Part shown: positions 3,091 to 63,773 of the stretch, in pieces
Position numbering within the stretch: position 1 is the first letter of the stretch
Layout: each line of letters opens with the position of its first letter
Source of the DNA: Candidatus Saccharimonadales bacterium
GTDB lineage: Bacteria; Patescibacteriota; Saccharimonadia; Saccharimonadales; UBA10212
DNA: 64,000 nt
Assembly (NCBI GenBank): GCA_035758565.1
Contig: DASTXL010000001.1
Coordinates: 11,242-75,241 of the forward strand
Direction: 5' to 3'
Made by a program: the position numbers and the translations under genes
The notes under the pieces: generated by a model
Databases searched by the model: none
What the model saw: only the letters and a program-made list of their open reading frames with translations
What the model was told of the DNA's origin: nothing

Positions 3091-4990
3091 GCAGAAATAT
3101 CTGGATTATTTTAAGGATAAAGACCACGCCATTGTGCCGCGGGCACTGTTGGTGCCGCAGAACGACCCGACGACGCTATTTACCGGCTCCGGCATGCAGC
3201 CGATGATCCCGTACTTGCTGGGAGAATCACATCCTGGTGGCAAAAGGCTGGTCAATAGTCAGCCTTGCTTACGTGTCCAAGATATAGAAGAGGTGGGCAA
3301 TAGTAAACACACTACTTTTTTTGAAATGCTTGGTAATTGGAGTTTGGGCGATTATTTCAAAAAAGAACAAATCAAATACTTCAGCGACTTTATTTTTGAT
3401 GAACTAAAACTAGAGCCGGATAAGGTTTACGTAAGCTGCTACATCGGCAACGAAAAGTTCGGAATTCCGCGGGACGACGAAGCTATCGAATGTTGGCAGC
3501 AAGCTTTTAAAGAACGAGGCGTTGATGCCAAGGTGGTAGAAATCGGTGCTGCCAGCCGGGGTGCGGAAGTAGGTATGCAGGGCGGCCGGATATTCTTGTA
3601 CGACGGTAAAGAAAATTGGTGGAGCCGGAATGGTGATGAAAACGGTACGCCGGTTGGTGACCCGTGCGGCCCGGACAGCGAAGTGTTTTATGATTTTGGT
3701 GAAGAACTTCATGACGAACAGGAATGGGGCAAGGCCCATCCGGCCAGTGATTCTCCACGCTTTTTAGAAATCGGCAACAATGTGTTCATGGCTTACAAAA
3801 AAACTGTCAGCGGATTTGAAAAACTGCCAGCCACGAATGTTGACTTTGGGGCTGGCCTAGAAAGAATCGCGGCTGCAGTTAACGGCCACCACGATGTTTA
3901 CCGAATTAGCTTAATTTGGCCAATCATTGAAAAACTAGAAGAGTTATCAGGCAAGAAATACGAAAGCCACACTGAAAGTATGCGCGTAATTGCGGACCAT
4001 TTACGAGGAGCCACATTTTTGGCAGTAGATGGCGTAACACCCAGCAACAAGCAGCAGGGTTATGTCATGCGCCGCTTACTGCGCCGGGCGATCCGCTACG
4101 CTTTTGAACTAGGCATCGAGCAGGACCTGTGCGAGCAGGTGGCGCCGATAATTATTGATTTATATAAACCCGATTTTCCGGAAGTCGACGAGCGCGAAAA
4201 GCAAGTCCTTGAAGTATTTACGCGCGAAGAAAAAATTTTCCGCCAGACTCTGCGCAAAGGCCTGCTTGAATTTAATAAACTACTCGGGTCAGCTTTTCCG
4301 GCATCATATCCAATGGCAATCGGCGGCAAAAAACCACTAACGGGAGAGTTAATTTTCAGACTTTATGATACTTTCGGTTTTCCGGTGGAATTAACAAAAG
4401 AAGAGGCGTTCAAGAGAGGCATTCAAATTGCTAATGGAGCTGACGAAGACTTTGAAAAGCTGATGGAAGAACAACGCAAGCGCTCCCAGACGGCTAGCGC
4501 CGGGATGTTCAAAGGCGGCCTAGCCGACCATTCTGAGCAGGTTATTAAGTATCACACCGCCACACATTTGATGTACCAAGCGCTCAAAAATGTTTTGGGC
4601 GACCACGTCGTGCAGCGCGGCAGCAACATTACAGCCGAACGCCTGCGTTTTGACTTTAGCCACCCAGAAAAAGTCAGCCGCGAACAGCTAGACAAAGTCG
4701 AAAAAATCGTGAATGAAAAAATCGCCGAAGATTTGCCAGTCAGCTGGCAAGAAGAAAAGACCGAAGAAGCCTTCAAAAAAGGCGCGTCTGGTGCCTTTGG
4801 CGACAAATATGGCGATACGGTCAAAGTCTATACCATCGGGGATCCGGCTAAGCCGTTCAGCCGCGAAATCTGCGGCGGCCCGCATGTTGAGCACACCGGC
4901 GTGATCGGCGAAGGCGGCAAAAAATTCAAAATCATAAAAGAAGAAGGTTCTAGCGCCGGCGTCCGCCGCATCAAAGCAGTACTGCAATGA
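3065..4990 (+). CDS. alaS: Alanyl-tRNA synthetase, short form ending after the editing domain
   Basis: N-terminus MTAQEIRQKYLDYFKDKDHAIVP..LFTGSGMQP. Editing-domain motifs HTATHLM and CGGPHV. The protein ends ...SSAGVRRIKAVLQ with no C-Ala domain. The start is probably ATG 3071. Confidence 0.9.
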   Translation: MLMTAQEIRQKYLDYFKDKDHAIVPRALLVPQNDPTTLFTGSGMQPMIPYLLGESHPGGKRLVNSQPCLRVQDIEEVGNSKHTTFFEMLGNWSLGDYFKKEQIKYFSDFIFDELKLEPDKVYVSCYIGNEKFGIPRDDEAIECWQQAFKERGVDAKVVEIGAASRGAEVGMQGGRIFLYDGKENWWSRNGDENGTPVGDPCGPDSEVFYDFGEELHDEQEWGKAHPASDSPRFLEIGNNVFMAYKKTVSGFEKLPATNVDFGAGLERIAAAVNGHHDVYRISLIWPIIEKLEELSGKKYESHTESMRVIADHLRGATFLAVDGVTPSNKQQGYVMRRLLRRAIRYAFELGIEQDLCEQVAPIIIDLYKPDFPEVDEREKQVLEVFTREEKIFRQTLRKGLLEFNKLLGSAFPASYPMAIGGKKPLTGELIFRLYDTFGFPVELTKEEAFKRGIQIANGADEDFEKLMEEQRKRSQTASAGMFKGGLADHSEQVIKYHTATHLMYQALKNVLGDHVVQRGSNITAERLRFDFSHPEKVSREQLDKVEKIVNEKIAEDLPVSWQEEKTEEAFKKGASGAFGDKYGDTVKVYTIGDPAKPFSREICGGPHVEHTGVIGEGGKKFKIIKEEGSSAGVRRIKAVLQ

Positions 4991-5616
4991 GCAAAGATCT
5001 AATCGCCTCGATAGCCGGCGGTATATCAATAATTTTCGCGACTTGGGCGGCAGTGCCTTACATTCTCTCTATCTTGCGCGGCAGGACTAAGCCGCACCAA
5101 ATGACCTGGCTGGTTTTCAGCATTATGAACGGAGTAGTCTTTCTAAGCCAATACCTCAAGGGCGCCAGAGCTAGCGTGCTGCTTTATATCGTCTGGTTCT
5201 TCTCCAGCACGATTATATTTCTGCTGTCTTTAAAGTTTGGGTTGCGAAACACCTCGCGTCTGGACCGCACTTTATTTAGCTTAAGCCTGCTGACGATTGT
5301 GGCTTGGGCTTTAACCAAAAATCCGTCGGTGGCAATTTGGCTGACGGTTTTTATAGACATTTTTGCTACCAGCATGATGCTGCTCAAAATTCGCGCCCAT
5401 CCCGACTCCGAAGAAGTTTTTCCATGGATAATTGGCACGATAGCCTACATATTCACAGTAATTTCTCTTATCAATAAATCTTTCGGGATACTATATGTCC
5501 GGCCAATTTACGGACTCATATCGGAGGCCGCTATTCCGATTTATATACTTTACCTAGCTAAGACCGGCGGCCAAAGCAATAAAAAAAGGCCTTCCGGCCT
5601 CAACATTCAAGTGTGA
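4987..5616 (+). CDS. Polytopic membrane protein, unknown function
   Basis: 209 aa with about 6 hydrophobic helices. Its start overlaps the alaS stop (ATGA). Confidence 0.55.
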   Translation: MSKDLIASIAGGISIIFATWAAVPYILSILRGRTKPHQMTWLVFSIMNGVVFLSQYLKGARASVLLYIVWFFSSTIIFLLSLKFGLRNTSRLDRTLFSLSLLTIVAWALTKNPSVAIWLTVFIDIFATSMMLLKIRAHPDSEEVFPWIIGTIAYIFTVISLINKSFGILYVRPIYGLISEAAIPIYILYLAKTGGQSNKKRPSGLNIQV

Positions 5617-5620
5617 TTCT

Positions 5621-5664
5621 GAGAGGGGCGCCGGTGAAGGCGCCGCCTCTCTGCAGGATTTTTT
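5621..5664 (+). terminator. GC-rich hairpin plus T-run downstream of the 4987..5616 gene
   Basis: GAGAGGGGCGCC ggtgaa GGCGCCGCCTCTC, then TTTTTT at 5659-5664. A 7-nt gap separates stem and T-run, so it is sub-optimal. Confidence 0.4.
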
Positions 5665-5714
5665 CATCGGCCCTGCTTGGCCGGTGGAGCTAGGAGTCGG
5701 GCATCTGGTAGTTG

Positions 5715-6146
5715 TTACGCCACACGTCGGAGCGGGTTCGTGTCCTTACCTACTTGCTCGCTGTCCTCGTTCCAGAAGGAGGAGGAGGTCAGCGCGACGA
5801 ACGTCGCCAGGCCGAACACCAGGCTGGTGAGGCCGAAGACGATGTAGCCGATCCTGAAGGCGGGCACGCAGGCCATCATCTCCACGATGGAGACGATGAT
5901 GTACAACGAGAACGTGTAGCCGTTGTCCTCGACCTCGAACCAGTGCGCGACGAACCACATCAGCAGTCCGACGAACACCTCGGCGACGAGGATCCAGGCA
6001 AGCTCGCCGCTGGCTAGCGGCCAGAAGAGCTTGTCGTGCCACGGGATCTGGTAGGCCACGAAGTGGCCGATGGCGGCGCGGTAGTCGTTGACCAGCAGTG
6101 CCGCGAGAACACCCGCGAAGACGGCAGAGAAAAGCTTGAACTTCAT
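5715..6146 (-). CDS. Small 4-TM membrane protein on a high-GC islet, unknown function
   Basis: GGGAGG SD lies 7 nt upstream of ATG 6146 (MKFKLFSAVFAGVLAALL...). The protein has hydrophobic helices and GC3-rich codons. The competing frames are Arg/Pro-rich shadow ORFs. Confidence 0.6.
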   Translation of the reverse strand: MKFKLFSAVFAGVLAALLVNDYRAAIGHFVAYQIPWHDKLFWPLASGELAWILVAEVFVGLLMWFVAHWFEVEDNGYTFSLYIIVSIVEMMACVPAFRIGYIVFGLTSLVFGLATFVALTSSSFWNEDSEQVGKDTNPLRRVA

Positions 6147-6343
6147 TTGAAGCAACCTCCCTGGAGAAGTGACATTTGCCAAAGGCAAGCAAATAACTAA
6201 GTATTTAGCGATCTATCTGCCCCTGGCAATAACTAGCTCTAAGTTGTAACGTGCGTCCAACCACCTCTAGCGATTGAACGGACATATAATAGCACTTATG
6301 TTTAGTTTTGTCAATATCATAACCGCTTTCGACAAGAGTAATG

Positions 6344-6352
6344 TGCTATAAT
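6344..6352 (+). promoter_or_regulatory. Extended -10 promoter TGcTATAAT, 10 nt upstream of ftsA ATG
   Basis: TGCTATAAT at 6344-6352 and ATG at 6363. Confidence 0.5.
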
Positions 6353-6362
6353 TTAGCCGATT

Positions 6363-7667
6363 ATGCTTGATAAAGCCAAAGGGCTCACCGACCTAAAAAA
6401 CAAACTACCTAAGCCAGCCAAAAATACAAAAAGTGGGCAGGTGGGACAGTATTTGGTGGGGTTAGATATTGGCACCGAGTACGTCAAGGCGCTGGTTGGC
6501 CGGGTAGTTGGAAATGAAGTGCAAATTATTGGGGTAGGCCGCGCCCACCAAGAACTGGCCGACATGCAGGCTGGCGCCATTGCCGACATCGCCGCGGTGA
6601 CTGCTAACTGCGACAAAGCTCTAGCAATTGCCGAGCAGCAGGCGGGGGTTAGCGCCCGCACGGCTGTGATAGGAATTGCCGGCGAACTCGTCAAGGGCAC
6701 CACGAGCACGGTTCGCTTCAGCCGTAAGAACTCTACAAAGGAAATCGACGTCGACGAGATGAGCCGTATTATTGAGCTTGTCCAAGAGCGCGCCGAAGCT
6801 AAGGCTCGGCGCGATCTAGCCTGGGAATTGGGCGGCAAAAACGTAGAAGTTCGCTTAGTAAACAGCGCGCTTGTGCGCATAGATATCGATGGCTACAAAG
6901 TGACTAACCCAGTGGGCTTTCAGGGTAAAGATGTGCTGGTAGAAATGTATACCGCCTTTGCGCCAATGATTCATATTGGAGCCTTAGAGCGTACGGCTGC
7001 TGAGTTAGACCTGGATCTTCTGGCTGTGGCCGCCGAGCCATTTGCTGTAGCTCGTAGTGTGGTGGGTGACGATCCCAACGGATCGGTCAGCGCTGTTTTG
7101 ATGGATGTGGGCGGCGGTACTACCGATATTGCCGTAGTTAACGAGGGCGGCGTGGAGGGAACTAAAATGTTTGGGATTGGCGGCCGGGCTTTTACCCATG
7201 CTATCGAACGAGAATTGGATGTTGATTTTGTAAAGGCCGAAAGCCTGAAGCTTGGCCTCGATACTGGCAAGGTTAGCACGGCCCATCGGGCACCAATCGA
7301 AAAAGCTTTGAATAAAACCCTGAATGTCTGGACCAGCGGTGTAGAGTTAGCTCTAGCCGAGTTTAATAAATTAGACCATCTGCCGCACAGAGTTCTGCTT
7401 TGTGGCGGCGGTTCTAGTTTGGAAGCTTTGATGCAGCGTTTAGAAGAAAGCGATTGGTACAAAAGCCTGCCGTTTACTAAAAGGCCGGCTGTTCAGCATA
7501 TCCAACCCGATGAAGTTGTTGGCATAACAGATACTACTGGCGATATAACAGATCACACATTTATAACGGCGATGGGTTTGCTCAGAGTTGGGCTAGATAC
7601 TCTTAGTTCAGACGACAGCGATGGCGGTGGTATCCGCGGTAAACTTAACAAGGTCTTAAAAGTATGA
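6363..7667 (+). CDS. ftsA: Cell division protein FtsA (actin-like ATPase)
   Basis: Phosphate-1 motif LVGLDIGTEYVKALVG, VLMDVGGGTTDIAV, and LLCGGGSSLEAL. Length and order of motifs fit FtsA; PilM is not excluded. Confidence 0.65.
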   Translation: MLDKAKGLTDLKNKLPKPAKNTKSGQVGQYLVGLDIGTEYVKALVGRVVGNEVQIIGVGRAHQELADMQAGAIADIAAVTANCDKALAIAEQQAGVSARTAVIGIAGELVKGTTSTVRFSRKNSTKEIDVDEMSRIIELVQERAEAKARRDLAWELGGKNVEVRLVNSALVRIDIDGYKVTNPVGFQGKDVLVEMYTAFAPMIHIGALERTAAELDLDLLAVAAEPFAVARSVVGDDPNGSVSAVLMDVGGGTTDIAVVNEGGVEGTKMFGIGGRAFTHAIERELDVDFVKAESLKLGLDTGKVSTAHRAPIEKALNKTLNVWTSGVELALAEFNKLDHLPHRVLLCGGGSSLEALMQRLEESDWYKSLPFTKRPAVQHIQPDEVVGITDTTGDITDHTFITAMGLLRVGLDTLSSDDSDGGGIRGKLNKVLKV

Positions 7668-10930: not shown

Positions 10931-12076
10931 TTGGTCAAGGAGCAACTCATTCGTAAATCGATTTTGAAATCTGTTAAGATGCCACAACTTGAAGGGATGG
11001 GAACCATTCCTAGGTTTAGTCCGTCTAAGCTTAATAAGCGTGCCCGTCGCCAATTGATCAGGCGTAGCCTAATAGCCGGCAACGTCTTATTGCTGGTTTT
11101 GGTTGGTAGTTTCGTATTTTATAACCGTTCGGCGAGTCAAACTGTGCGAGCCAGCACCCTAAACAGTGCTACCGCTACAGCGTCTATGTCGTCTGATCCG
11201 CTTGATCAGCTGTCTTCGTCGCAAATTGCTTTAACTGCAGCCCAAATGGCCGGCTTGCCGGAGCTACCAGCAATTAAAAACACCGCTGATTCAGATAGTT
11301 TATTGCTTGCAGTAGTGCCGAATGATTCAACTGCTCTGGCTAAGCCACAAATTGTGGCTACGGCCGAAAAGTCTAAAGCCGATATCATAACCTACATAAC
11401 TCAGCCCGGCGATACTGTTTCTGCTTTAGCGACAAAATTTGGGGTTACGGCCGATAGTATTAAATGGTCCAACAACATAACAAGTGATTCACTAGGAGCT
11501 GGTGTCAAACTATTTATTCCACCCGTTAACGGTCTTGTATATAAGGTTAAGTCTGGCGATACGCCGGCCAGTCTGGCCACAAGATTCCAAGCCGATCAGA
11601 GCGATATTGTTATTTACAATGATGCCGAGATTAATGGTTTGACACCAGGTGAGCTGATTATTATACCTAACGGTAAGCAGCCAGCCCCAGTAGTTAGTTA
11701 CTATAGCTACAACATCTCAAGCGGATTTGCCTGGGGAAGTGGCGCTATTTATGGAGAAAATGGTTACGATTTTGGCGAATGTACCTGGTATGTGGCCACC
11801 CAAATATCGGTGCCAGCTAACTGGGGCAATGCTAATACTTGGGCTGCTGGTGCTAGGGCGAGCGGCTGGACAGTTAGCCCTACGCCTACTGCCGGCGCCA
11901 TAGCTCAAACGCCCTACGGGGGCGGAGGCTTTGGTCACGTTGGAATTGTAGTGGCTGTTCAGGGCGATCAGGTAGAAATCCGTGACATGAACAACTACGG
12001 CGACGGCGGCGGCTGGGATAGAGTAGGTCAAGGCTGGGTGCCAATCTCTACCTATCCAAACTACATAACTCGCTAG
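10931..12076 (+). CDS. Peptidoglycan hydrolase with 2 LysM domains and a C-terminal CHAP domain
   Basis: TM helix, then LysM repeats (YITQPGDTVSALATKFGV; YKVKSGDTPASLATRF). CHAP-like C-terminus (GECTWYVA...GFGHVGIVVAV). The start codon is uncertain. Confidence 0.75.
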   Translation: MVKEQLIRKSILKSVKMPQLEGMGTIPRFSPSKLNKRARRQLIRRSLIAGNVLLLVLVGSFVFYNRSASQTVRASTLNSATATASMSSDPLDQLSSSQIALTAAQMAGLPELPAIKNTADSDSLLLAVVPNDSTALAKPQIVATAEKSKADIITYITQPGDTVSALATKFGVTADSIKWSNNITSDSLGAGVKLFIPPVNGLVYKVKSGDTPASLATRFQADQSDIVIYNDAEINGLTPGELIIIPNGKQPAPVVSYYSYNISSGFAWGSGAIYGENGYDFGECTWYVATQISVPANWGNANTWAAGARASGWTVSPTPTAGAIAQTPYGGGGFGHVGIVVAVQGDQVEIRDMNNYGDGGGWDRVGQGWVPISTYPNYITR

Positions 12077-57221: not shown

Positions 57222-58418
57222 ATGAGTAACTTAGAATTCGATCCAGTTCTATCACCAAATAACCAGGAGTATCCGCGAGCCGCAGAAATTGTGCGTAACC
57301 TGTTGGCGCCTCAGCCGGTAATTATCGGCATAGAAGGCGGGCCATGTGGCGGCAAAACAACCTTAACCGAGCAAATCGTGGCCGAAGCCGAAAGTCGCGG
57401 CCAGCCGGTTTACGTTTTGCCAGAAGTTGCTACCAAGCACATACTTAAACTCCACGAACAAGGTTTTAGCATTCCAGAGCTTGCCGCCAACGACCGCGAA
57501 GGTTACTTGGCTTTCCAAATGGCTGTGCTCGGCGACATAAACCAAAGACTAATTAGCGCCAAAAAAGAATTCGCCGGTACTGACACGTTAATATTGAGTG
57601 ATCGTTTGAGTAATCGCCCATACATTACAGGCGAAGAATACGAAGAGCTTTGCCGTCGGCTGGGTTATGGCCCGAATGAGGTCATTCAAAACCATGTAGA
57701 CAAAGTTATTTACCTACCGAGCGTGGCTAAGGTAGCGCCAGAACTTTACGGGGAGCTTCAACTAACAAATACGGCGCGTTACGAAACGCTAGACCAGGCG
57801 ATAGCTACTTGCGATCGTACGTTGTCCAGCGTGGCCGCTCATCCGGAACTACATATAGTCGCTGATGGCCAGGATTTTGACGCCAAAATGCGGCGGGCCA
57901 AAAATTTGGCGTTCGATAATCAAAATGAATATGAAACCAAATGGCGGCCAGCAGATGAAGTGGAATTGGTCGAATGGATCAAGGCCAAACAAAAAGCTGG
58001 CGAAGTTCTAAACTCTATAGAAATCGGCCAAAGTTATCACCGCTTGCCCGACGGCACAACCTATAGACTGCGGGCTGGCACTGGCAGCGATGGCCAGGAT
58101 TTTTATCACTTTACAGTAAAGCAAAGGCATGAGTATGGTAGCAGGGAGATTAACCGCATCATAACCGAGCAGCAATATCAGACTTTGGCCGATCAACCAT
58201 GTCAAGGCTGGTTGTTCAAAAAACGCTTCGTCGTTTTAGATAACTGGCAGGTTTGGCACTGCGATTTCATCATGGACGGGGATGAAGGCTTCTGGATAGT
58301 CGAGGCTGAAGTTACGTGCCCCGAAGAGATTGATAATATTCAGTGCCCAGTGGCAATGGTTGATGCCAATTATTTTAAAACCGAAGACTATGCCAGCAGA
58401 AATCTTCCACGACGCTAA
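57222..58418 (+). CDS. Fusion protein: P-loop NTPase/kinase (AAA_28/NadR-kinase-like) with a C-terminal CYTH (triphosphate tunnel) domain
   Basis: Walker A GIEGGPCGGKTT. The C-terminal half begins with the CYTH signature ExExK (NEYETKW, nt 57927) and has YRLRAG and a terminal IVEAEV strand. Confidence 0.55.
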   Translation: MSNLEFDPVLSPNNQEYPRAAEIVRNLLAPQPVIIGIEGGPCGGKTTLTEQIVAEAESRGQPVYVLPEVATKHILKLHEQGFSIPELAANDREGYLAFQMAVLGDINQRLISAKKEFAGTDTLILSDRLSNRPYITGEEYEELCRRLGYGPNEVIQNHVDKVIYLPSVAKVAPELYGELQLTNTARYETLDQAIATCDRTLSSVAAHPELHIVADGQDFDAKMRRAKNLAFDNQNEYETKWRPADEVELVEWIKAKQKAGEVLNSIEIGQSYHRLPDGTTYRLRAGTGSDGQDFYHFTVKQRHEYGSREINRIITEQQYQTLADQPCQGWLFKKRFVVLDNWQVWHCDFIMDGDEGFWIVEAEVTCPEEIDNIQCPVAMVDANYFKTEDYASRNLPRR

Positions 58419-58468
58419 ACGGCCTATGCTTGCAAAGCTTAACCTTAGCGTTCATCCTGAAAGTGAGT

Positions 58469-59149
58469 ATGGACCGCCCGCTTGAGCACCACATCCAGCG
58501 CAGCATTATTGTGAGGCTGTCTTTGGCTGAAACTTTGCGCTTTTCGGATTTGAAGCCGGCCAGCCTCGAAAATAACCATTTTATGTACCATTTAAACCGG
58601 CTGATAAAAGACGGCTTGGTCGAAAAACGCGATAATTTGTATGCTCTCGCACCGGCTGGTTTGACTTATGTAGATCTGCTTAGCTACAAAAACCGCCGGC
58701 CAAGACATCAGCCCAAATTAATCGCAATTTTGGTTGTTCAAAATAAAAACGGTGATTATCTGTTGGCCCAACGCCACGTCCAGCCTTATTACGGTTACGC
58801 GATGTTGCCAAGCGGCAAGCAGCATTTTGGCGAAAGCCCGTTTGAGCATGCTGCCCGTGAAGCGAAGGAAAAGACCGGTCTAGCCATCAAGCTCGCTCAC
58901 CGTGGTTACGTGAATGTAAAAATATCTAAAGGTGACCATATAATCAGCCATGTTGCAGCGCATGTTTTTAGCGGCAAGCTCAACGATCAAGGTGCTATCA
59001 AGCAGGGCGACGAGCGGTTTAAGCTCTTCTGGCAGCCAAAAAACGAGCTTGATAAAGTCAAACTTATGCCCGGCACACTTGAAATTATCGAGCTGGTTAG
59101 CAAAAACCAAACAACATTTTTTGAATCTTTAGAATATCAGCTTGCTTGA
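58469..59149 (+). CDS. Winged-helix DNA-binding domain fused to a NUDIX hydrolase domain (NrtR-like content, reversed domain order)
   Basis: N-terminal wHTH (IQRSIIVRLSLAETLRFSDLKP...MYHLNRLIKDGLVEK). Nudix box GKQHFGESPFEHAAREAKEKTGL. The start is set at ATG 58469. Confidence 0.65.
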   Translation: MDRPLEHHIQRSIIVRLSLAETLRFSDLKPASLENNHFMYHLNRLIKDGLVEKRDNLYALAPAGLTYVDLLSYKNRRPRHQPKLIAILVVQNKNGDYLLAQRHVQPYYGYAMLPSGKQHFGESPFEHAAREAKEKTGLAIKLAHRGYVNVKISKGDHIISHVAAHVFSGKLNDQGAIKQGDERFKLFWQPKNELDKVKLMPGTLEIIELVSKNQTTFFESLEYQLA

Positions 59150-59164
59150 TATACTATTTAACAG

Positions 59165-62100
59165 ATGAAGCGATACAATCCCAAAGAGATTGAGCCAAAA
59201 TGGCAGAGTGTTTGGCGCGAATCCGGCATTTATAAAACGGACATGAGTCGTACCAACGATAAGTTTTATGTAATTCCGATGTTGCCGTACCCGTCCGGCG
59301 ATTTGCACATTGGCCATTGGTATAACTTTGCTCCAACAGATACAGTCGCGCGCTTTCGCCGCATGCTGGGGCAGAACGTTTTCACGACCGTTGGCTTTGA
59401 TGCGTTTGGTTTGCCAGCCGAAAACGCGGCGATTAAACGCGGCATTCAACCGGCAGTCTGGACTTACGGCAATATCGCCACTATGACCAAGCAGCTGGAG
59501 CAAATTGGGGCCAGCTACGATTGGGGCCACAGCTTAGCCACTTGCAAGCCGGATTATTATCACTGGAATCAGTGGCTGTTTTTGCAACTTTATGAAAGGG
59601 GCTTAGCTTACCGCGCCAAAAGGGTAGTTAACTGGTGCCCCAAAGATCAGACGGTGTTAGCCAACGAGCAAGTTGTTGGCGAAGAGAACGTTTGCGAGCG
59701 CTGCGGCACGCCGGTTGTTCAAAAAGAACTAGAACAATGGTTCTTTAAGATCACCAACTATGCCGACCGCCTGCTGGACGATTTGGAAACTGTTGATTGG
59801 CCGGCCAAGGTCAAAACCATGCAGGAAAACTGGATTGGCAAAAGCAAAGGCGCCCTGATCGATTTTGAAGTGGCTAAATCTGATGCTCATAGCTCAGAAA
59901 AGCACAAGGAAGAGCCGAAGTGCGGACAAAGCGGTACAAAAGCGTACCGCGGAGAGAGCACTGGAGGATCTGACGCGGTGATTGCTGAGAGTGCCGGCAG
60001 TGTTTCCGGCTCTGCCGGAAAGCAGGACGGCACGGCTATGAGCGTCAGGGTTTTCACTACCAGGCCGGATACGATTTACGGTGCGACTTATATGGTCCTG
60101 GCGCCCGAACATCCGCTGGTGCTAAAAATCACCAGTGACGAATGCCGCGAGCGGGTTGAAAATTATATCGAAGAAACTAAGCGTAAAACCGAGCTGGAAA
60201 GAAAGGAAGGCGAAAAGCATAAAACAGGAAGCTTTACTGGTGCTTATGCCATCAACCCGGCAACCAAGAAAAAGATTCCGATCTGGATTGCTGATTATGT
60301 ACTGGCGAGCTACGGTACCGGTGCAATTATGGCGGTACCGGCGCACGACGAACGCGACTGGGAATTTGCTAAAAAGTTCGACCTGGACATCCAGCCGGTT
60401 GTGGCGCCAATTGTGACCGACAAAGATCATCCGCCCAGGAGCGACAAAGAAAACACTCAGCGCAACGTGGCTATGTGTTTGGTTAAGCATCCTAAAAACG
60501 ATGAGATCATTACTTTAAAATGGCCTAAGTTTGGCTGGCGCGGCTTGGTAACCGGCGGCGTAGAAAAAGGCGAAGATTTAATCGAAGCCGCCGAGCGCGA
60601 AATCACAGAAGAAACCGGCTATAAAAACATGAAGCTGGTCGGCCGCGTACCTTATCCGATTAATTCGCTGTTTTACGCCGAGCACAAAGACGTTAACCGT
60701 GATGTGTTTATGAACATCATGATGTTTGAACTGACCGACTTAGAACAAGTGGCTACCAAAAAAGAAGCTCACGAAGATTTTGAAGCTGAGTGGTGGCCAT
60801 TAAATAAAATTAGCGAGCTATGGCCAGTGTCTGAGCTAGAGTATATTATCGCCTGGCTAAAAAACGGCGACCAAGCTTATGCTGGCGAAGGTACCATGAT
60901 AAATTCCGGTAAATACGACCGCATGAGCTCGGCCGAAGCTCGGGAAAAAATCGTTGCCGATCTAGAAAAAGAAGGCATTGCCAAAGAGCAAACTAACTAC
61001 AAGTTGCGCGATTGGCTGATTAGCCGCCAGCGCTACTGGGGCACGCCGATTCCAATAATTTACTGTAACGACTGCGGCATGCAGACAGTGCCGGAAAAAG
61101 ACTTGCCGGTTATTTTGCCAGAAGATGTTGAATTCACGCCGACTGGACGCAATCCTTTGCTGGATAGACCAGACTTTGTTGGTACAACTTGTCCGAATTG
61201 CGGCAAACCAGCCAAGCGCGAGACCGACACCATGGATACTTTTGTCGATTCCAGCTGGTACTTCCTGCGCTATCTGGATAACAAAAATGATAAAGCGGCT
61301 TTTGATACAGAGCTAATTAACAAATGGATGCCGATGGACCACTACATTGGCGGTATCGAACACGCTATCTTGCACTTGCTATATGCCCGATTTGTCACTA
61401 AATTCTTGCACGATGAACATGGCCTAAATTTTGAAGAACCGTTCCGAAAATTAACCAATCAAGGTTTAATTTTGGGCCCTGACGGTCAAAAAATGAGCAA
61501 AAGCAAGGGTAACGTGATTAATCCGGACGAGCAGGTGACAGGTTACGGCGCCGACAGCCTACGGCTTTATTTAATGTTCATGGGTCCTTACGATCAAGGC
61601 GGGCCGTACTCTTTGGGTGGTATCGCCGGTACGCGCCGGTTCCTGGACCGCATTTGGACTTTGGTTGGCGAGTTTTTGGAAGCCCCAGCCGAAGCCAAAT
61701 CTAATATTAGCGAGACGGCTTTAATGGCTGCTACCCACCGTACTATTAAAAAAGTTACCCAAGACTTAGAAAAGCTGGGCTTTAACACCGCGATTGCTGC
61801 CATGATGAGCCTGGTTAACGAGCTATATAAACAAAAAGCGGCTAATGGTATCAGCCAAACTCCTGCCTGGCGCCAAAGCTTAGAAAGTTTAATTCAGTTG
61901 CTGGCGCCATTCGCGCCGCATATCACCGAAGAAATGTGGCTCGACATGGGCCATGAAGAATCGATCCATGTATCTAATTGGCCACTGTGGGACGAGAAGC
62001 TAGCCAAAGAAGAAATGATAACCCTGGCTGTTCAAATCAACGGCAAAGTCCGGGCTCAAATTACAGTTTCGGCCGACGCTAGCGAACAAGAAATCGTATC

Positions 62101-62194
62101 CGAAGCCAGGGAAGAAGCCGAGGAATATCTTGTCGGAAAAGAAGTCAAAAAAATAATCTACGTCCCTGGCCGCCTAGTTAGCTTAGTAGTCTAG
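59165..62194 (+). CDS. leuS: Leucyl-tRNA synthetase carrying two large in-frame insertions (low-complexity insert and NUDIX domain)
   Basis: HIGH (PYPSGDLHIGHWYNF), editing domain (VFTTRPDTIYGATY; AVPAHDERDWEFAKKF), LRDWLISRQRYWGTPIP, KMSKS (QKMSKSKGN). 1009 aa. Confidence 0.93.
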   Translation: MKRYNPKEIEPKWQSVWRESGIYKTDMSRTNDKFYVIPMLPYPSGDLHIGHWYNFAPTDTVARFRRMLGQNVFTTVGFDAFGLPAENAAIKRGIQPAVWTYGNIATMTKQLEQIGASYDWGHSLATCKPDYYHWNQWLFLQLYERGLAYRAKRVVNWCPKDQTVLANEQVVGEENVCERCGTPVVQKELEQWFFKITNYADRLLDDLETVDWPAKVKTMQENWIGKSKGALIDFEVAKSDAHSSEKHKEEPKCGQSGTKAYRGESTGGSDAVIAESAGSVSGSAGKQDGTAMSVRVFTTRPDTIYGATYMVLAPEHPLVLKITSDECRERVENYIEETKRKTELERKEGEKHKTGSFTGAYAINPATKKKIPIWIADYVLASYGTGAIMAVPAHDERDWEFAKKFDLDIQPVVAPIVTDKDHPPRSDKENTQRNVAMCLVKHPKNDEIITLKWPKFGWRGLVTGGVEKGEDLIEAAEREITEETGYKNMKLVGRVPYPINSLFYAEHKDVNRDVFMNIMMFELTDLEQVATKKEAHEDFEAEWWPLNKISELWPVSELEYIIAWLKNGDQAYAGEGTMINSGKYDRMSSAEAREKIVADLEKEGIAKEQTNYKLRDWLISRQRYWGTPIPIIYCNDCGMQTVPEKDLPVILPEDVEFTPTGRNPLLDRPDFVGTTCPNCGKPAKRETDTMDTFVDSSWYFLRYLDNKNDKAAFDTELINKWMPMDHYIGGIEHAILHLLYARFVTKFLHDEHGLNFEEPFRKLTNQGLILGPDGQKMSKSKGNVINPDEQVTGYGADSLRLYLMFMGPYDQGGPYSLGGIAGTRRFLDRIWTLVGEFLEAPAEAKSNISETALMAATHRTIKKVTQDLEKLGFNTAIAAMMSLVNELYKQKAANGISQTPAWRQSLESLIQLLAPFAPHITEEMWLDMGHEESIHVSNWPLWDEKLAKEEMITLAVQINGKVRAQITVSADASEQEIVSEAREEAEEYLVGKEVKKIIYVPGRLVSLVV
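59885..60043. repeat. Inverted-repeat-bounded, hairpin-rich 159-bp in-frame insertion in leuS
   Basis: GCTCATAGC (59885-93) and GCTATGAGC (60035-43) flank it. Internal hairpins are GCGGTAC/GTACCGC (59931-50) and TTTCCGGC tct GCCGGAAA (60003-21). It encodes about 50 low-complexity residues between FEVAKSD and MSVRVFTTRPDT. Confidence 0.8.
60404..60874 (+). other. NUDIX hydrolase domain embedded in LeuRS (residues ~414-570)
   Basis: Perfect Nudix box GGVEKGEDLIEAAEREITEETGY at nt 60554-60622. It is flanked by beta-strand-like segments (RNVAMCLVKHP..IITLKW; VFMNIMMFELT). Confidence 0.75.
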
Positions 62195-62555: not shown

Positions 62556-62796
62556 AGCTAGACCTTAGGTAGCCCAAAGTAAAACATAAGTTATACTGGA
62601 TAGAGGCCCAGTAAAAGGAAGATTAACAACATGGCAACAGGAATCCATTCCGCCGCTCACTTTCGGGCTGCAACCCCAACCTTTGGGCTGCAGAATCCAT
62701 TTTGCGCGTCGATGTACCTACGGGTACACCTTCTTGCAAAAATGGCTTCTTCGCTTCCAAACATTGGGTCTTCACCTTGCGAAAGGAGCAGACGAA

Positions 62797-63258
62797 ATGG
62801 CTTCTAATCGTCACTTAGGTCGGATAGTCGCCCTGCAAACTCTGTACGAGCAGGATTTTCGGCGCGAGTGTCAAGACGAGACCTTTGATCTTACCGAAGT
62901 AATGGCTCGCAACATAAGTCGTTACGATGAGATGATTGACGATAAGGACTTCATCGAACAATTGGTTCATGGTGTCGATAAGAAAGAGAAAGAGTTGGAT
63001 GATACTATCCGGCCCTTGGCGCCAGAATGGCCCATTGAGCAAATAGCCCGCATGGACCGTGTTATCTTGCGTATCGGCGCTTATGAACTGTTGTTTGAAA
63101 AAGACGTTCCGCCTAAGGTTGTAATCAATGAAGCTGTCGAACTAGCCAAAGCATTCGGCGGCGACAATTCCTCGAAATTCATCAACGGCGTTTTAGGTAG
63201 TGTTTTGCGTCAAAAAGAAGGCGAGCCTGCCGAAGCGCCACAACCCCAAAAGGACTAA
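62797..63258 (+). CDS. nusB: Transcription antitermination factor NusB
   Basis: GAAAGGAG SD upstream of ATG 62797. [13 protein letters not shown]..., [12 protein letters not shown] and [17 protein letters not shown]. Confidence 0.85.
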
Positions 63259-63269
63259 GAAGAATTAAG

Positions 63270-63773
63270 ATGAAAAGACCAAAGCCAATCGCCGGCTTTA
63301 AAAAACTTGTGCATCGGCCTGGTATTCAGGAAGTTGTCCGCGAGCCAACCGCCGGCGGTATTGTTTACCGGCCAAGCAAAAAAAATCCTCAAACTGTCGA
63401 AATCCTACTAATCCAAGACAGCAAGGGTCGCTGGACCATTCCAAAAGGCCATATCGAAGAGGGTGAAACTGCCCGCCAGACCGCCCAGCGCGAAATTACC
63501 GAGGAAACCGGTCTAAAAGAGATGCAAGTGCTTGATTGGCTTGGCAAAATTAATTTTCGGTATCGCCGGGGCAACAGTCTGGTGCTGATGACTACCGAAA
63601 TCTTTTTAGTCAAAGCCCAGGGCAACACCGACGAAGTTAAGCCCGAAAAATGGATGACCAGTTTGGGTTGGCTGCCGGCTACCGATGCGCTTGAAAAAAT
63701 CGAATACGAAGACATCGGTAAGCTGATTTTGATAGCATTAAAGAAAATTAGAACGAATAATCAGGAGAAATAA
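63270..63773 (+). CDS. NUDIX hydrolase
   Basis: Nudix box PKGHIEEGETARQTAQREITEETGL. 167 aa. Confidence 0.85.
   Translation: MKRPKPIAGFKKLVHRPGIQEVVREPTAGGIVYRPSKKNPQTVEILLIQDSKGRWTIPKGHIEEGETARQTAQREITEETGLKEMQVLDWLGKINFRYRRGNSLVLMTTEIFLVKAQGNTDEVKPEKWMTSLGWLPATDALEKIEYEDIGKLILIALKKIRTNNQEK

Follow-up and report, generated by a model that had tools for sequence, protein, structure and literature searches.

A Nudix hydrolase domain nested in the editing domain of leucyl-tRNA synthetase is common across Patescibacteria and appears to be exchanged like a cassette

The window analyzed here is a 64,000-nucleotide stretch of contig DASTXL010000001.1 (GenBank assembly GCA_035758565.1, Candidatus Saccharimonadales bacterium; positions 11,242 to 75,241 of the forward strand), and its leuS gene encodes a leucyl-tRNA synthetase (LeuRS) that carries a second enzyme domain within its own editing domain. 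A complete Nudix hydrolase domain with the full set of catalytic residues is almost certainly nested in a surface hairpin loop of the connective polypeptide (CP1), the editing domain of LeuRS. The LeuRS-Nudix architecture is common across Patescibacteria, the candidate phyla radiation (CPR), and is not unique to the window genome. Sequence comparisons place the insert, with near certainty, in a Nudix subfamily that occurs mainly in Patescibacteria, both as free-standing proteins and as in-frame LeuRS cassettes, and the module has almost certainly been repeatedly acquired, replaced, lost and duplicated independently of the LeuRS core. As for function, our best explanation, to which we give a probability of roughly 40%, is that the Nudix domain may act as a tethered small-molecule pyrophosphohydrolase clearing Ap4A-type by-products.

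The host gene is an uninterrupted open reading frame (ORF), and its product is 100% identical to GenBank HEU5004532.1 (P0153), a protein from a metagenome-assembled genome (MAG) of Candidatus Saccharimonadales with the database name 'class I tRNA ligase family protein'. The product scores 1030.8 bits on the NCBIfam equivalog model TIGR00396 (leuS_bact), whose cut-off is 548.4, and the match falls into three stretches with the inserts between them. The initial annotation had placed all LeuRS landmarks in their normal order within this gene, and we located every motif in that order, namely HIGH, NWIGKS, TTRPDT, PAHDERD, the Nudix box, RDWLISRQRYWG and KMSKS. The features of the gene are as follows, with residues (aa) numbered in the leuS product and A3 denoting our alignment of 70 sequences.

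59165..62194, + strand: leuS, bacterial-type leucyl-tRNA synthetase, 1009 aa (uninterrupted ORF, TIGR00396, Foldseek)
59306..59317, + strand: HIGH, class I synthetic-site signature, aa 48-51 (H48, G50 and H51 invariant in A3)
aa 222-227: NWIGKS motif
59876..60031, + strand: low-complexity 'site A' stretch, about aa 238-289, at the N-terminal entry of CP1 (alignment; predicted local distance difference test, pLDDT)
60029..60403, + strand: CP1 editing domain, N-terminal part, aa 289-413 (PF13603; aligned with Thermus residues 237-362)
60056-60073, + strand: TTRPDT, threonine-rich editing motif, aa 298-303
60338-60358, + strand: PAHDERD, editing motif, aa 392-398
60404..60868, + strand: inserted Nudix hydrolase domain, aa 414-568, leaving a CP1 beta-hairpin (PF00293, Thermus alignment, model, Foldseek)
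60554-60622, + strand: Nudix box GGVEKGEDLIEAAEREITEETGY, aa 464-486, a perfect GX5EX7REUXEEXGU
60671..60700, + strand: subfamily signature F-Y-A-E-H-K-D-V-N-R downstream of the box, aa 503-512 (K508 and N511 invariant or nearly so)
60869..61000, + strand: CP1 editing domain, C-terminal part, aa 569-612, returning to the catalytic body
aa 615-626: RDWLISRQRYWG motif
61490..61504, + strand: KMSKS loop, aa 776-780 (K776, M777 and K779 invariant in A3)

The two parts of CP1 are separated by the Nudix domain. PF13603 matched aa 289-422 with 211 bits (profile positions 18-149 of 185), all on the N-terminal side of the Nudix domain, while aa 569-639 align to Thermus residues 374-444 in HMMER and the C-terminal part is modeled as a strand (576-578), a helix (589-602) and a further strand (606-612). 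The editing residues T298, T299, R300, D302, T303, D395, R397 and D398 are invariant in A3, and the synthetic and editing residues are unchanged across homologues with and without the insert. Because these residues are all invariant, we judge the LeuRS host to be intact; it is almost certainly a bacterial-type LeuRS of the Saccharimonadales bacterium and looks fully functional.

The borders of the insert were set by HMMER alignment to the LeuRS of Thermus thermophilus (1h3n/2bte), in which aa 413 falls on Thermus residue 362 and aa 569 on residue 374, so that 155 residues stand in the window protein against 11 in Thermus. The CP1 domain of Streptococcus pneumoniae has 7 residues at this site, the reference LeuRS compared, from species other than E. 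coli, have 7–13, and close homologues without a Nudix domain mostly have 8–13 and at most 42. The initial annotation had put about 20 residues at this place in E. coli-type LeuRS, and its contrast with the long block of the window protein holds. The initial annotation had described an extra block of about 160 residues at 60404..60874 (aa 414-570), which by the Thermus alignment coincides almost exactly with the insert. PF00293 (NUDIX) matched the whole leuS product with 47.7 bits (E 2.1e-12, aa 440-556) and that segment alone with 52.3 bits (E 7.5e-14), far above the gathering cut-off of 21.1. The textbook Nudix box reported for this block is fully canonical, with its catalytic residues at E470, R478, E479, E482 and E483. 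An AlphaFold2 model of the full-length protein, built with the 70-sequence alignment, has a mean pLDDT of 87.4 and values of 91–97 in the Nudix segment, and aa 400-590 modeled alone reached a pLDDT of 95.2 and a predicted template-modeling (TM) score of 0.88. The full Nudix fold that had been proposed for the block thus appears in the model as a discrete domain inside CP1, with the Nudix-type arrangement of strands and helices and the box carried by helix 472-484. Foldseek matched the insert model to many Nudix structures with a probability of 1.00, and the whole model most closely to the LeuRS of T. thermophilus, E. coli and Neisseria gonorrhoeae (E 1e-87 to 1e-70). The insert departs from CP1 after strand 413-418 and comes back at strand 576-578, so that the Nudix domain is nested in a CP1 beta-hairpin, with CP1 itself inserted in the Rossmann fold.

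Conservation among relatives suggests that the catalytic residues of the insert are under purifying selection. In 38 diverse inserts at the site used in the window (site B), R433, G464, G465, E479, E483, G485, N511 and W543 are invariant and R478, E482, T484, K508 and L523 are conserved in at least 90% (alignment numbering plus 417 gives protein numbering, e.g., N94 is N511 and K91 is K508). Downstream of the box these inserts share the consensus F-x-A-x-H-K-x-x-N-R, or F[YF]AxHKxxNR, and the signature of the subfamily as a whole reads GG[IV]ExGE...A.REhxEETGY...F[YF]AxHKxxNR...W.

A HMMER search of 1.84 billion representatives of 50%-identity clusters, with the insert and short LeuRS flanks as query, found 413 proteins with E ≤ 1e-3, of which 213 had E ≤ 1e-10. 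The best 150 of the 413 representatives contain at least 118 Nudix copies at site B, with a fully canonical box in 95 of the 118 and the ExxEE core retained in 110 (93%). In a scan of one genome per GTDB species with a single peptide pattern derived from a 6-sequence alignment, 39 loci matched the insert again, and at least 37 species representatives have the Nudix domain inside LeuRS at site B; the remaining two loci are a site-A fragment (L001) and a 135-aa ORF without a LeuRS match (L028). Most insert-bearing records are labeled Saccharibacteria, Paceibacteria/Parcubacteria, or Moranii-, Jorgensen-, Kaiser-, Lipton- or Adlerbacteria. A few loci carry other labels (Tenericutes, Bacilli, Gammaproteobacteria and Nanoarchaeia; L012, L014 with a GC content of 0.29, L022 and L018), and L018 is probably mis-binned because its nusB is Saccharibacteria-like (58% identical). 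A check of the phylogenetic spread, proposed with the initial annotation, therefore finds the architecture widespread, with nearly all records labeled Patescibacteria. Of the 119 full-length homologues closest to the window protein, 53 have a Nudix domain; their median length is 962 aa.

The mapped Nudix copies lie in or beside CP1 (window aa ~198-683), at positions equivalent to window aa ~198-223, ~290 (site A), 413/570 (site B), 601-604, 634-641 and 666-683, and site B holds the great majority of them. No copy was found in the regions equivalent to window aa 1-197 or 684-1009 among the mapped LeuRS-like proteins. One copy is present in 169 LeuRS-like proteins, two in 11 and three in 2, and Pfam agrees on these copy numbers. 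The same kind of Nudix domain also occurs in a GatA-type amidase fragment (P0003, L083 15-1010), where it stands directly before position 225 of 445 of the Amidase profile, which implies that the glutaminase subunit of the tRNA-dependent amidotransferase is interrupted internally. The N-terminal part of P0003 lies off the 1.4-kb contig. In L001 (696-3212; GCA_018263615.1, VZQX01001491.1), leuS is broken into at least five short ORFs with a Nudix domain at site A directly after NWIGRSTGAEISFEI, and most other genes called on that contig are short fragments too.

The history of the insert appears to be decoupled from that of the LeuRS core, and the insert behaves like an exchangeable cassette. 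We compared cores (778 columns) and inserts in a set of sequences picked by total similarity to the window protein. The cores closest to that of the window (79–84% identical; P0159, P0154, P0161, P0158, P0157, P0156, P0163 and P0155) show six different insert states and have either no insert or inserts only 21–36% identical, whereas the most similar inserts (47–56%; P0268, P0270, P0265, P0258, P0243, P0202 and P0191) sit in the most distant cores (56–68%). Sliding-window identity in the close-core group runs at 80–95% along the core and drops abruptly to 10–45% from aa ~400 to ~575, while the distant-core group stays flat at 50–60% in core and insert alike. These two observations, identity that breaks exactly at the domain borders and similar cores with dissimilar inserts, underlie the cassette reading. 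Realigned separately, 54 inserts fell into 11 types; divergence of insert and core is similar within a type and jumps between types, and 186 pairs combine a core identity above 75% with an insert identity below 35%. Fitch parsimony with 12 states (the 11 types and none) on a neighbor-joining core tree required 37 steps (36–39 in 50 bootstrap trees), compared to a minimum of 11 and a value of 47.7 for randomized labels, and presence or absence of the insert alone required at least 14 steps on the core tree of 70 sequences. Choosing the set by similarity may inflate the global anticorrelation (Spearman) between core and insert. A Berkson-type selection bias is, however, unable to explain the sharp breaks at the borders or individual discordant pairs, such as a core identity of 80% beside an insert identity of 25% in one pair and 56% for both in another. 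The exchange probably proceeds by recombination through the conserved flanks ..AVPAHDERDxEFAKK.. and ..GEGxLINSGKYDG..

Genes next to leuS are related to those of the window to a different degree than the synthetases are. NusB of L003 (P0270) and L082 (P0159) is 73% and 77% identical to that of the window and the adjacent Nudix protein 76% and 71%, while the LeuRS cores of these loci are 56% and 84% identical. The neighbors are about equally close and the cores are not, and leuS as a whole, beyond the insert alone, seems to be mosaic or xenologous in Saccharimonadales.

The profile of the inserts matches many free-standing Patescibacteria proteins of ~160 aa, with E-values down to 1e-50. The window insert is 47–56% identical to LeuRS inserts of other genomes and 44% identical to the free-standing P0038. 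The best match outside its own type was a free-standing Nudix protein rather than another LeuRS insert for 33 of the 54 inserts, and the inserts of type 10 are 54–60% identical to the free-standing P0279 and P0306 versus 39–43% to other insert types. Types 6 and 10 carry paired changes in the box, with Q for the glutamate of Gx5E and A, T, M or N for the arginine of RE. Since the type-10 variant is shared by genuine free-standing genes such as P0279, the variant box marks a subfamily rather than decay. P0038 lies 2 nt upstream of a leuS gene that itself carries the insert; a general rule that free-standing relatives neighbor leuS does not hold for P0291, P0285, P0324 or P0279.

Two further Nudix genes lie close to leuS in the window and were considered as sources of the insert.

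58430..59149, + strand: winged-helix and Nudix protein, 239 aa, ending 15 nt before leuS (Pfam NUDIX; DUF7347 below cut-off)
63270..63773, + strand: stand-alone Nudix gene, 167 aa, of the nusB-Nudix-rnc-rpsP block; not the source of the insert

The similarity of the insert's box to that of the stand-alone gene had suggested capture of a paralog to the initial annotation, and this proposal does not stand. The two share 40% identity over only 52 residues around the box, and the insert is far closer to other LeuRS inserts and to P0038. The neighboring gene is a conserved syntenic orthologue, 55–77% identical across Saccharibacteria, and its block also adjoins the insert-free LeuRS P0159, whose core is the closest to that of the window (84% identical). 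Capture of the upstream winged-helix and Nudix gene was likewise rejected, with 24% identity over 139 residues. No direct or inverted repeats flank the insert borders, and the GC content at third codon positions (GC3) is 0.52 in the insert compared to 0.52–0.60 elsewhere in leuS. The absence of border repeats and of a compositional anomaly indicates that the window's own Nudix copy is not transposon-like or recently imported DNA. A phage origin was also rejected, as no relative of the insert was found in a viral contig collection.

The insert-profile search additionally matched stand-alone proteins of ~277 aa, here called mini-CP1 + Nudix, in which degenerate CP1 segments surround a canonical Nudix domain at the same site as site B of LeuRS. 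They comprise P0327 and P0332 (clusters of 66 and 73 members) and at least five more 50% clusters (P0127, P0086, P0135, P0121 and P0084). The mini-CP1 equivalents of LeuRS segments pair IEKPELIYGATALML with TTRPDTIYGATYMVL, VPLHNRQDYELSLKYDLP with VPAHDERDWEFAKKFDLD, and FEGDGIIVSKD with YAGEGTMINSG. Wherever the downstream gene is complete on these contigs of 25% GC (L091 and L092-L096), a 279-aa protein follows; in L091 it weakly matches a class IV adenylate-cyclase/CYTH model (TIGR00318, 31.6 bits, below the cut-off of 57.95). The surroundings of the pair include Abi_2, restriction-enzyme fragments, SLFN_AlbA_2, TnpV, an integrase and a relaxase. The L091 pair (4409-7509) has a second weakly CYTH-like protein, a prokaryotic viperin (PADLOC pVip, E 4.5e-47) and a variant radical-SAM protein as neighbors. 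We regard the mini-CP1 + Nudix protein and its 279-aa partner as a candidate for an uncharacterized defence or nucleotide-chemistry module.

Aminoacyl-tRNA synthetases can convert an aminoacyl-adenylate and ATP into Ap4A. This chemistry ties synthetases to known Nudix substrates and is the reason for proposing that the insert clears Ap4A-type by-products. Under this proposal, the LeuRS part would charge and proofread tRNA(Leu) as usual, and the Nudix domain would be an autonomous Mg-dependent hydrolase held beside the adenylate-forming and acceptor-end region. It would cleave the diphosphate linkage of adenine-containing nucleoside-diphosphate-X compounds, most probably dinucleoside polyphosphates (Ap4A and Ap3A) that arise from the enzyme-bound aminoacyl-adenylate with ATP or ADP. 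Being tethered, the hydrolase would be co-expressed 1:1 with LeuRS and would clear these products on the spot, in nucleotide-salvaging organisms whose genomes are minimal. We infer the enzymatic activity, the substrate class and the benefit of tethering. The initial annotation had suggested Ap4A or mis-activated adenylates as substrates; Ap4A is plausible, and aminoacyl-adenylates are unlikely, because they have no diphosphate linkage, which established Nudix chemistry requires.

The closest matches of the insert are consistent with this proposal. Its best profile match in the PDB is the Ap4A hydrolase of Lupinus (1F3Y, E 3.8e-9, profile positions 15-86), in an alignment that puts the invariant R433 on the second residue of the N-terminal YRRNVG, followed by the mRNA-decapping effector AvrM14 and an uncharacterized Nudix protein of Enterococcus faecalis. 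By TM-score and root-mean-square deviation, the best fold neighbors are the Ap4A hydrolase of Aquifex (3I7U; TMt 0.77, 3.0 Å, 19% identity) and E. coli RppH (TMt 0.65–0.70), and the Ap6A hydrolase of Thermus and Rv2985 of Mycobacterium tuberculosis are further neighbors. The inserts are acidic in all 54 Saccharimonadales copies (median pI 5.2, net charge −8), favoring a small-molecule ligand over RNA. The location of all insertion sites in or next to CP1 and the position of P0038 beside leuS favor some link between the Nudix domain and LeuRS.

Several observations weigh against Ap4A clearance. The likeness to ApnA hydrolases and RppH is weak (< 25% identity), the generic Nudix enzymes MTH1, NUDT5 and AtNUDT7 follow closely in fold score, and all fold neighbors are at most 24% identical. 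The NCBIfam RppH/NudH (PRK00714) models scored 23.7–26.4 bits against cut-offs of 116–118, so far below that the insert is not an RppH orthologue. LeuRS is not known to be a strong producer of Ap4A. The insert is missing from 66 of the 119 best full-length homologues (median 811 aa), so its function must be dispensable there or supplied in trans, and the multiple insertion sites and the replacement of cassettes argue against precise channeling. Several free-standing relatives occupy a conserved HAD-phosphatase - Nudix - cupin - DUF4015 neighborhood with no leuS nearby, a context that hints at general nucleotide or nucleoside-diphosphate (NDP)-sugar salvage. Finally, the mini-CP1 + Nudix family lies in defence and mobile islands, and this context points to other chemistries.

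A possible, if unlikely, alternative is that CP1 and the Nudix domain form a module linked to biological conflict. Together they would sense or detoxify analogues of nucleotides, or nucleotide-linked damage, that target tRNA or translation, for example, viperin-type 3'-deoxy-3',4'-didehydro-nucleoside triphosphates (ddhNTPs) or ADP-ribosyl and pyrophosphoryl adducts on acceptor ends, and the cassette would diversify in an arms race with phages, hosts or competitors. CP1 binds the 3'-terminal adenosine of tRNA. The extreme turnover of the cassette with its sharp breaks at domain borders, the six insert states among similar cores, the presence of up to three copies per protein and, in some proteins, of a serine hydrolase at a second CP1 site, and the stand-alone mini-CP1 + Nudix proteins with their 279-aa partner amid defence and mobile genes, in L091 beside viperin, all point in this direction. 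However, that turnover could be neutral exchange of equivalent modules, and the defence-island data concern a derived stand-alone family in organisms of 25% GC, not the LeuRS insert. The insert itself had no match in PADLOC-DB v2 at E ≤ 0.01, which excludes a known defence protein there, and no relatives in the viral contigs. A stronger version is improbable in our estimation: a rapidly exchanged cassette would guard translation, its CP1 and Nudix parts would recognize and destroy analogues or adducts aimed at acceptor ends or at the synthetase, and this unit would have been exapted as the stand-alone mini-CP1-Nudix protein with its weakly CYTH-like partner in defence and mobile islands, in one case beside a prokaryotic viperin. 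LeuRS would then have an immune or counter-immune role.

The Nudix domain could also be a passenger without a link to LeuRS, i.e., a general enzyme of nucleotide-pool housecleaning or salvage (acting on NDP-sugars, ADP-ribose or aberrant NTPs) lodged in permissive CP1 loops of a highly expressed essential gene, which we consider rather unlikely. The abundance of free-standing members of the subfamily, several of them in the HAD-phosphatase and cupin context without leuS, would fit such a role, as would the 33 of 54 inserts that are closer to free-standing Nudix proteins than to other insert types, the use of several insertion sites and the interruption of the GatA amidase. Yet LeuRS is by far the predominant host, and all mapped sites fall in or beside CP1 and in none of the many other surface loops of an 800-aa enzyme. 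The free-standing P0038 lies just upstream of an insert-carrying leuS, and the persistence of a CP1 fragment with Nudix as an independent family suggests that the pairing itself is selected.

A role at RNA ends is quite improbable. In this case, the Nudix domain would be an RppH-like pyrophosphohydrolase or decapping enzyme acting on the 5' end (triphosphate, NAD or Np4 cap) of the tRNA held by LeuRS. RppH, the decapping Nudix AvrM14 and NUDT12 rank high among the matches by sequence or fold, the top NCBIfam Nudix matches are RNA pyrophosphohydrolase models, and placement in or next to CP1 would bring the domain near the acceptor end if the geometry is as we suppose. The partners of the stand-alone form are weakly CYTH-like, and the CYTH fold includes RNA triphosphatases. 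Against this stand the acidity of the inserts, which is poor for RNA binding, the RppH model scores about five-fold under the cut-off, and the multiple insertion sites, which make a constant position relative to the tRNA 5' end unlikely; the tRNAs of these organisms are, moreover, not known to retain 5'-triphosphates or caps.

Very improbable is a non-catalytic insert, which would sense nucleotides or serve as a structural add-on and so influence how CP1 moves, edits or binds partners. CP1 rotates during the LeuRS cycle, and the paired box changes of types 6 and 10 would suit such a role; the window copy, however, has a fully canonical box, ExxEE is retained in 93% of copies, and the variant box also occurs in the genuine free-standing enzyme P0279. 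An artefact of chimeric assembly or an intein-like segment removed from the mature protein is a negligible prospect. The same in-frame architecture recurs in hundreds of independent assemblies (with at least 37 species-representative genomes and at least 118 site-B copies), which excludes misassembly in practice. At neither junction (..QPVV|APIV.. or ..DQAY|AGEG..) do the Cys/Ser/Thr and His-Asn residues of inteins occur, the fold is that of a Nudix domain, a Pfam scan found no Hint-type domain in the leuS product, the borders have no repeats and GC3 resembles the rest of the gene.

A second peculiarity of the window LeuRS lies where the chain enters CP1 on the N-terminal side. Site A is 65 aa long in the window protein versus 14 aa in most homologues, i.e., ~51 residues longer, and the stretch KSDAHSSEKHKEE...GSAGKQDG is absent from all 69 aligned homologues. 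It is predicted to be disordered, with pLDDT values below 50 at aa 242-247 and 254-289. A 14-nt inverted repeat with 93% complementarity brackets the stretch (59880-59893 and 60035-60048). In relatives, site A holds a serine-hydrolase domain or a Nudix domain. The former, a serine-hydrolase or alpha-beta-hydrolase domain of ~190 aa (PF06821, PF12697; at the equivalent of window aa 226-290), is found in P0154, P0169, P0249 and P0267, with or without a Nudix domain at site B. The editing domain thus also harbors a hydrolase of a second kind. We rejected a decayed serine hydrolase as the origin of the window's stretch, since BLASTP similarity was confined to the conserved LeuRS flank.

The gene for the winged-helix and Nudix protein probably forms one operon with leuS, and no counterpart of it was found beside leuS in the other fetched loci. 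Downstream, the order leuS - nusB - Nudix (167 aa) - rnc - rpsP is kept in Saccharibacteria with or without the insert (window 62683-63773, L082 7932-8902, and L002-L004, L062, L065, L071 and L074), and the window's nusB ORF as listed begins at a TTG ~38 codons upstream of its likely start (MASNRHLGR...). Further upstream, 57222..58418 encodes a 398-aa protein with an N-terminal AAA_28 P-loop domain that is nucleoside/nucleotide-kinase-like. Its C-terminal half (~180 aa) has no Pfam or PDB match; by eye, 'EYETK' (ExExK-like) and 'IVEAEV' recall CYTH triphosphate-tunnel enzymes. We rejected a CYTH identity for this half, which found no support from Pfam, PDB or BLASTP and shows no similarity to the CYTH-like proteins of L091. 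Nine tRNA genes on the + strand, including three for tRNA-Leu (GAG, TAA and CAG), lie at 28451-50341 of the window.

Few translation enzymes have been studied as well as LeuRS, which is also a drug target, and its CP1 is the textbook example of an inserted domain. The initial annotation had known of no described LeuRS-Nudix architecture, and full-text literature searches found no description either. In databases, by contrast, the architecture is common: hundreds of relatives are already public, with the Nudix domain visible solely through automatic PF00293 matches, under the names 'leucine--tRNA ligase' or 'class I tRNA ligase family protein'. LeuRS-Nudix is thus widespread, undescribed in the literature searched and unusual in its mode of evolution. 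It is not categorically new, because accessory enzyme domains of aminoacyl-tRNA synthetases are known in principle and Nudix is a well-known superfamily. Up to three Nudix copies per synthetase occur across the Patescibacteria/CPR radiation, and cassette-like exchange within an essential gene is an unusual evolutionary phenomenon. If the Ap4A explanation is true, an aminoacyl-tRNA synthetase is fused to a hydrolase of its own side product, a combination not known to have been described, and this would bear on how alarmone-like dinucleotides are controlled in minimal cells; if the conflict-linked alternative is true, a defence or counter-defence role resides inside an essential translation enzyme. 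In either case, the insert marks a natural permissive site in CP1 for protein engineering and a lineage marker for CPR LeuRS.

Compared to canonical LeuRS of known structure (T. thermophilus 1H3N/2BTE, E. coli 4AQ7/4ARC and N. gonorrhoeae 7NU4; 33–39% identity), the window enzyme has the same domain order, i.e., a Rossmann domain with HIGH and KMSKS, CP1 after ZN1, and anticodon-binding and C-terminal domains, and it conserves the threonine-rich editing motif and the editing Asp. Where Thermus LeuRS has an 11-residue CP1 hairpin loop (363-373), however, the window LeuRS has the 155-residue Nudix domain, in addition to its 51-residue disordered stretch at the CP1 entry. The insert shares its fold and complete box with NudH-type Nudix enzymes (Lupinus 1F3Y, Aquifex 3I7U, Thermus Ndx1 1VC8, M. 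tuberculosis Rv2985 9CXX and RppH 4S2W), which are free-standing, while the insert is embedded and acidic, has its own F[YF]AxHKxxNR signature and is < 25% identical to them. The free-standing Patescibacterial family (P0038, P0279 and P0291; 'NUDIX hydrolase' or 'MutT') belongs to the same subfamily and shares an N-terminal lead-in segment with the inserts, but its members are independent genes, usually away from leuS. The pairing of a synthetase-made dinucleotide with a Nudix enzyme that degrades it is known from lysyl-tRNA synthetase and NUDT2 in animals and from RppH/ApaH in bacteria. These systems use two separate proteins, and by analogy LeuRS-Nudix would join both in one polypeptide.

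Isoleucyl-tRNA synthetase with an N-acetyltransferase (GNAT) domain (NF040702, ileS_w_GNAT) follows the same concept of a class I synthetase with a small-molecule-modifying domain, and this model matches the window LeuRS through its synthetase part; the host, the guest fold and the chemistry differ, and the inserted parts are not homologous. Inteins and other in-frame mobile insertions resemble the insert: they are polymorphic for presence and absence, have precise borders and a history of their own apart from the host gene, and sit in conserved regions of an essential protein. The insert differs in that it has no splicing residues and no Hint or homing-endonuclease domain, keeps its catalytic motif and is expected in the mature protein. 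A survey of domain insertions (2026) assigned the LeuRS editing domain PF13603 '100% insertion behavior' and no case in which it was the host, over 213 events (PMC13114784). In contrast to that survey, CP1 itself is the host of a second enzyme in the LeuRS of Patescibacteria.

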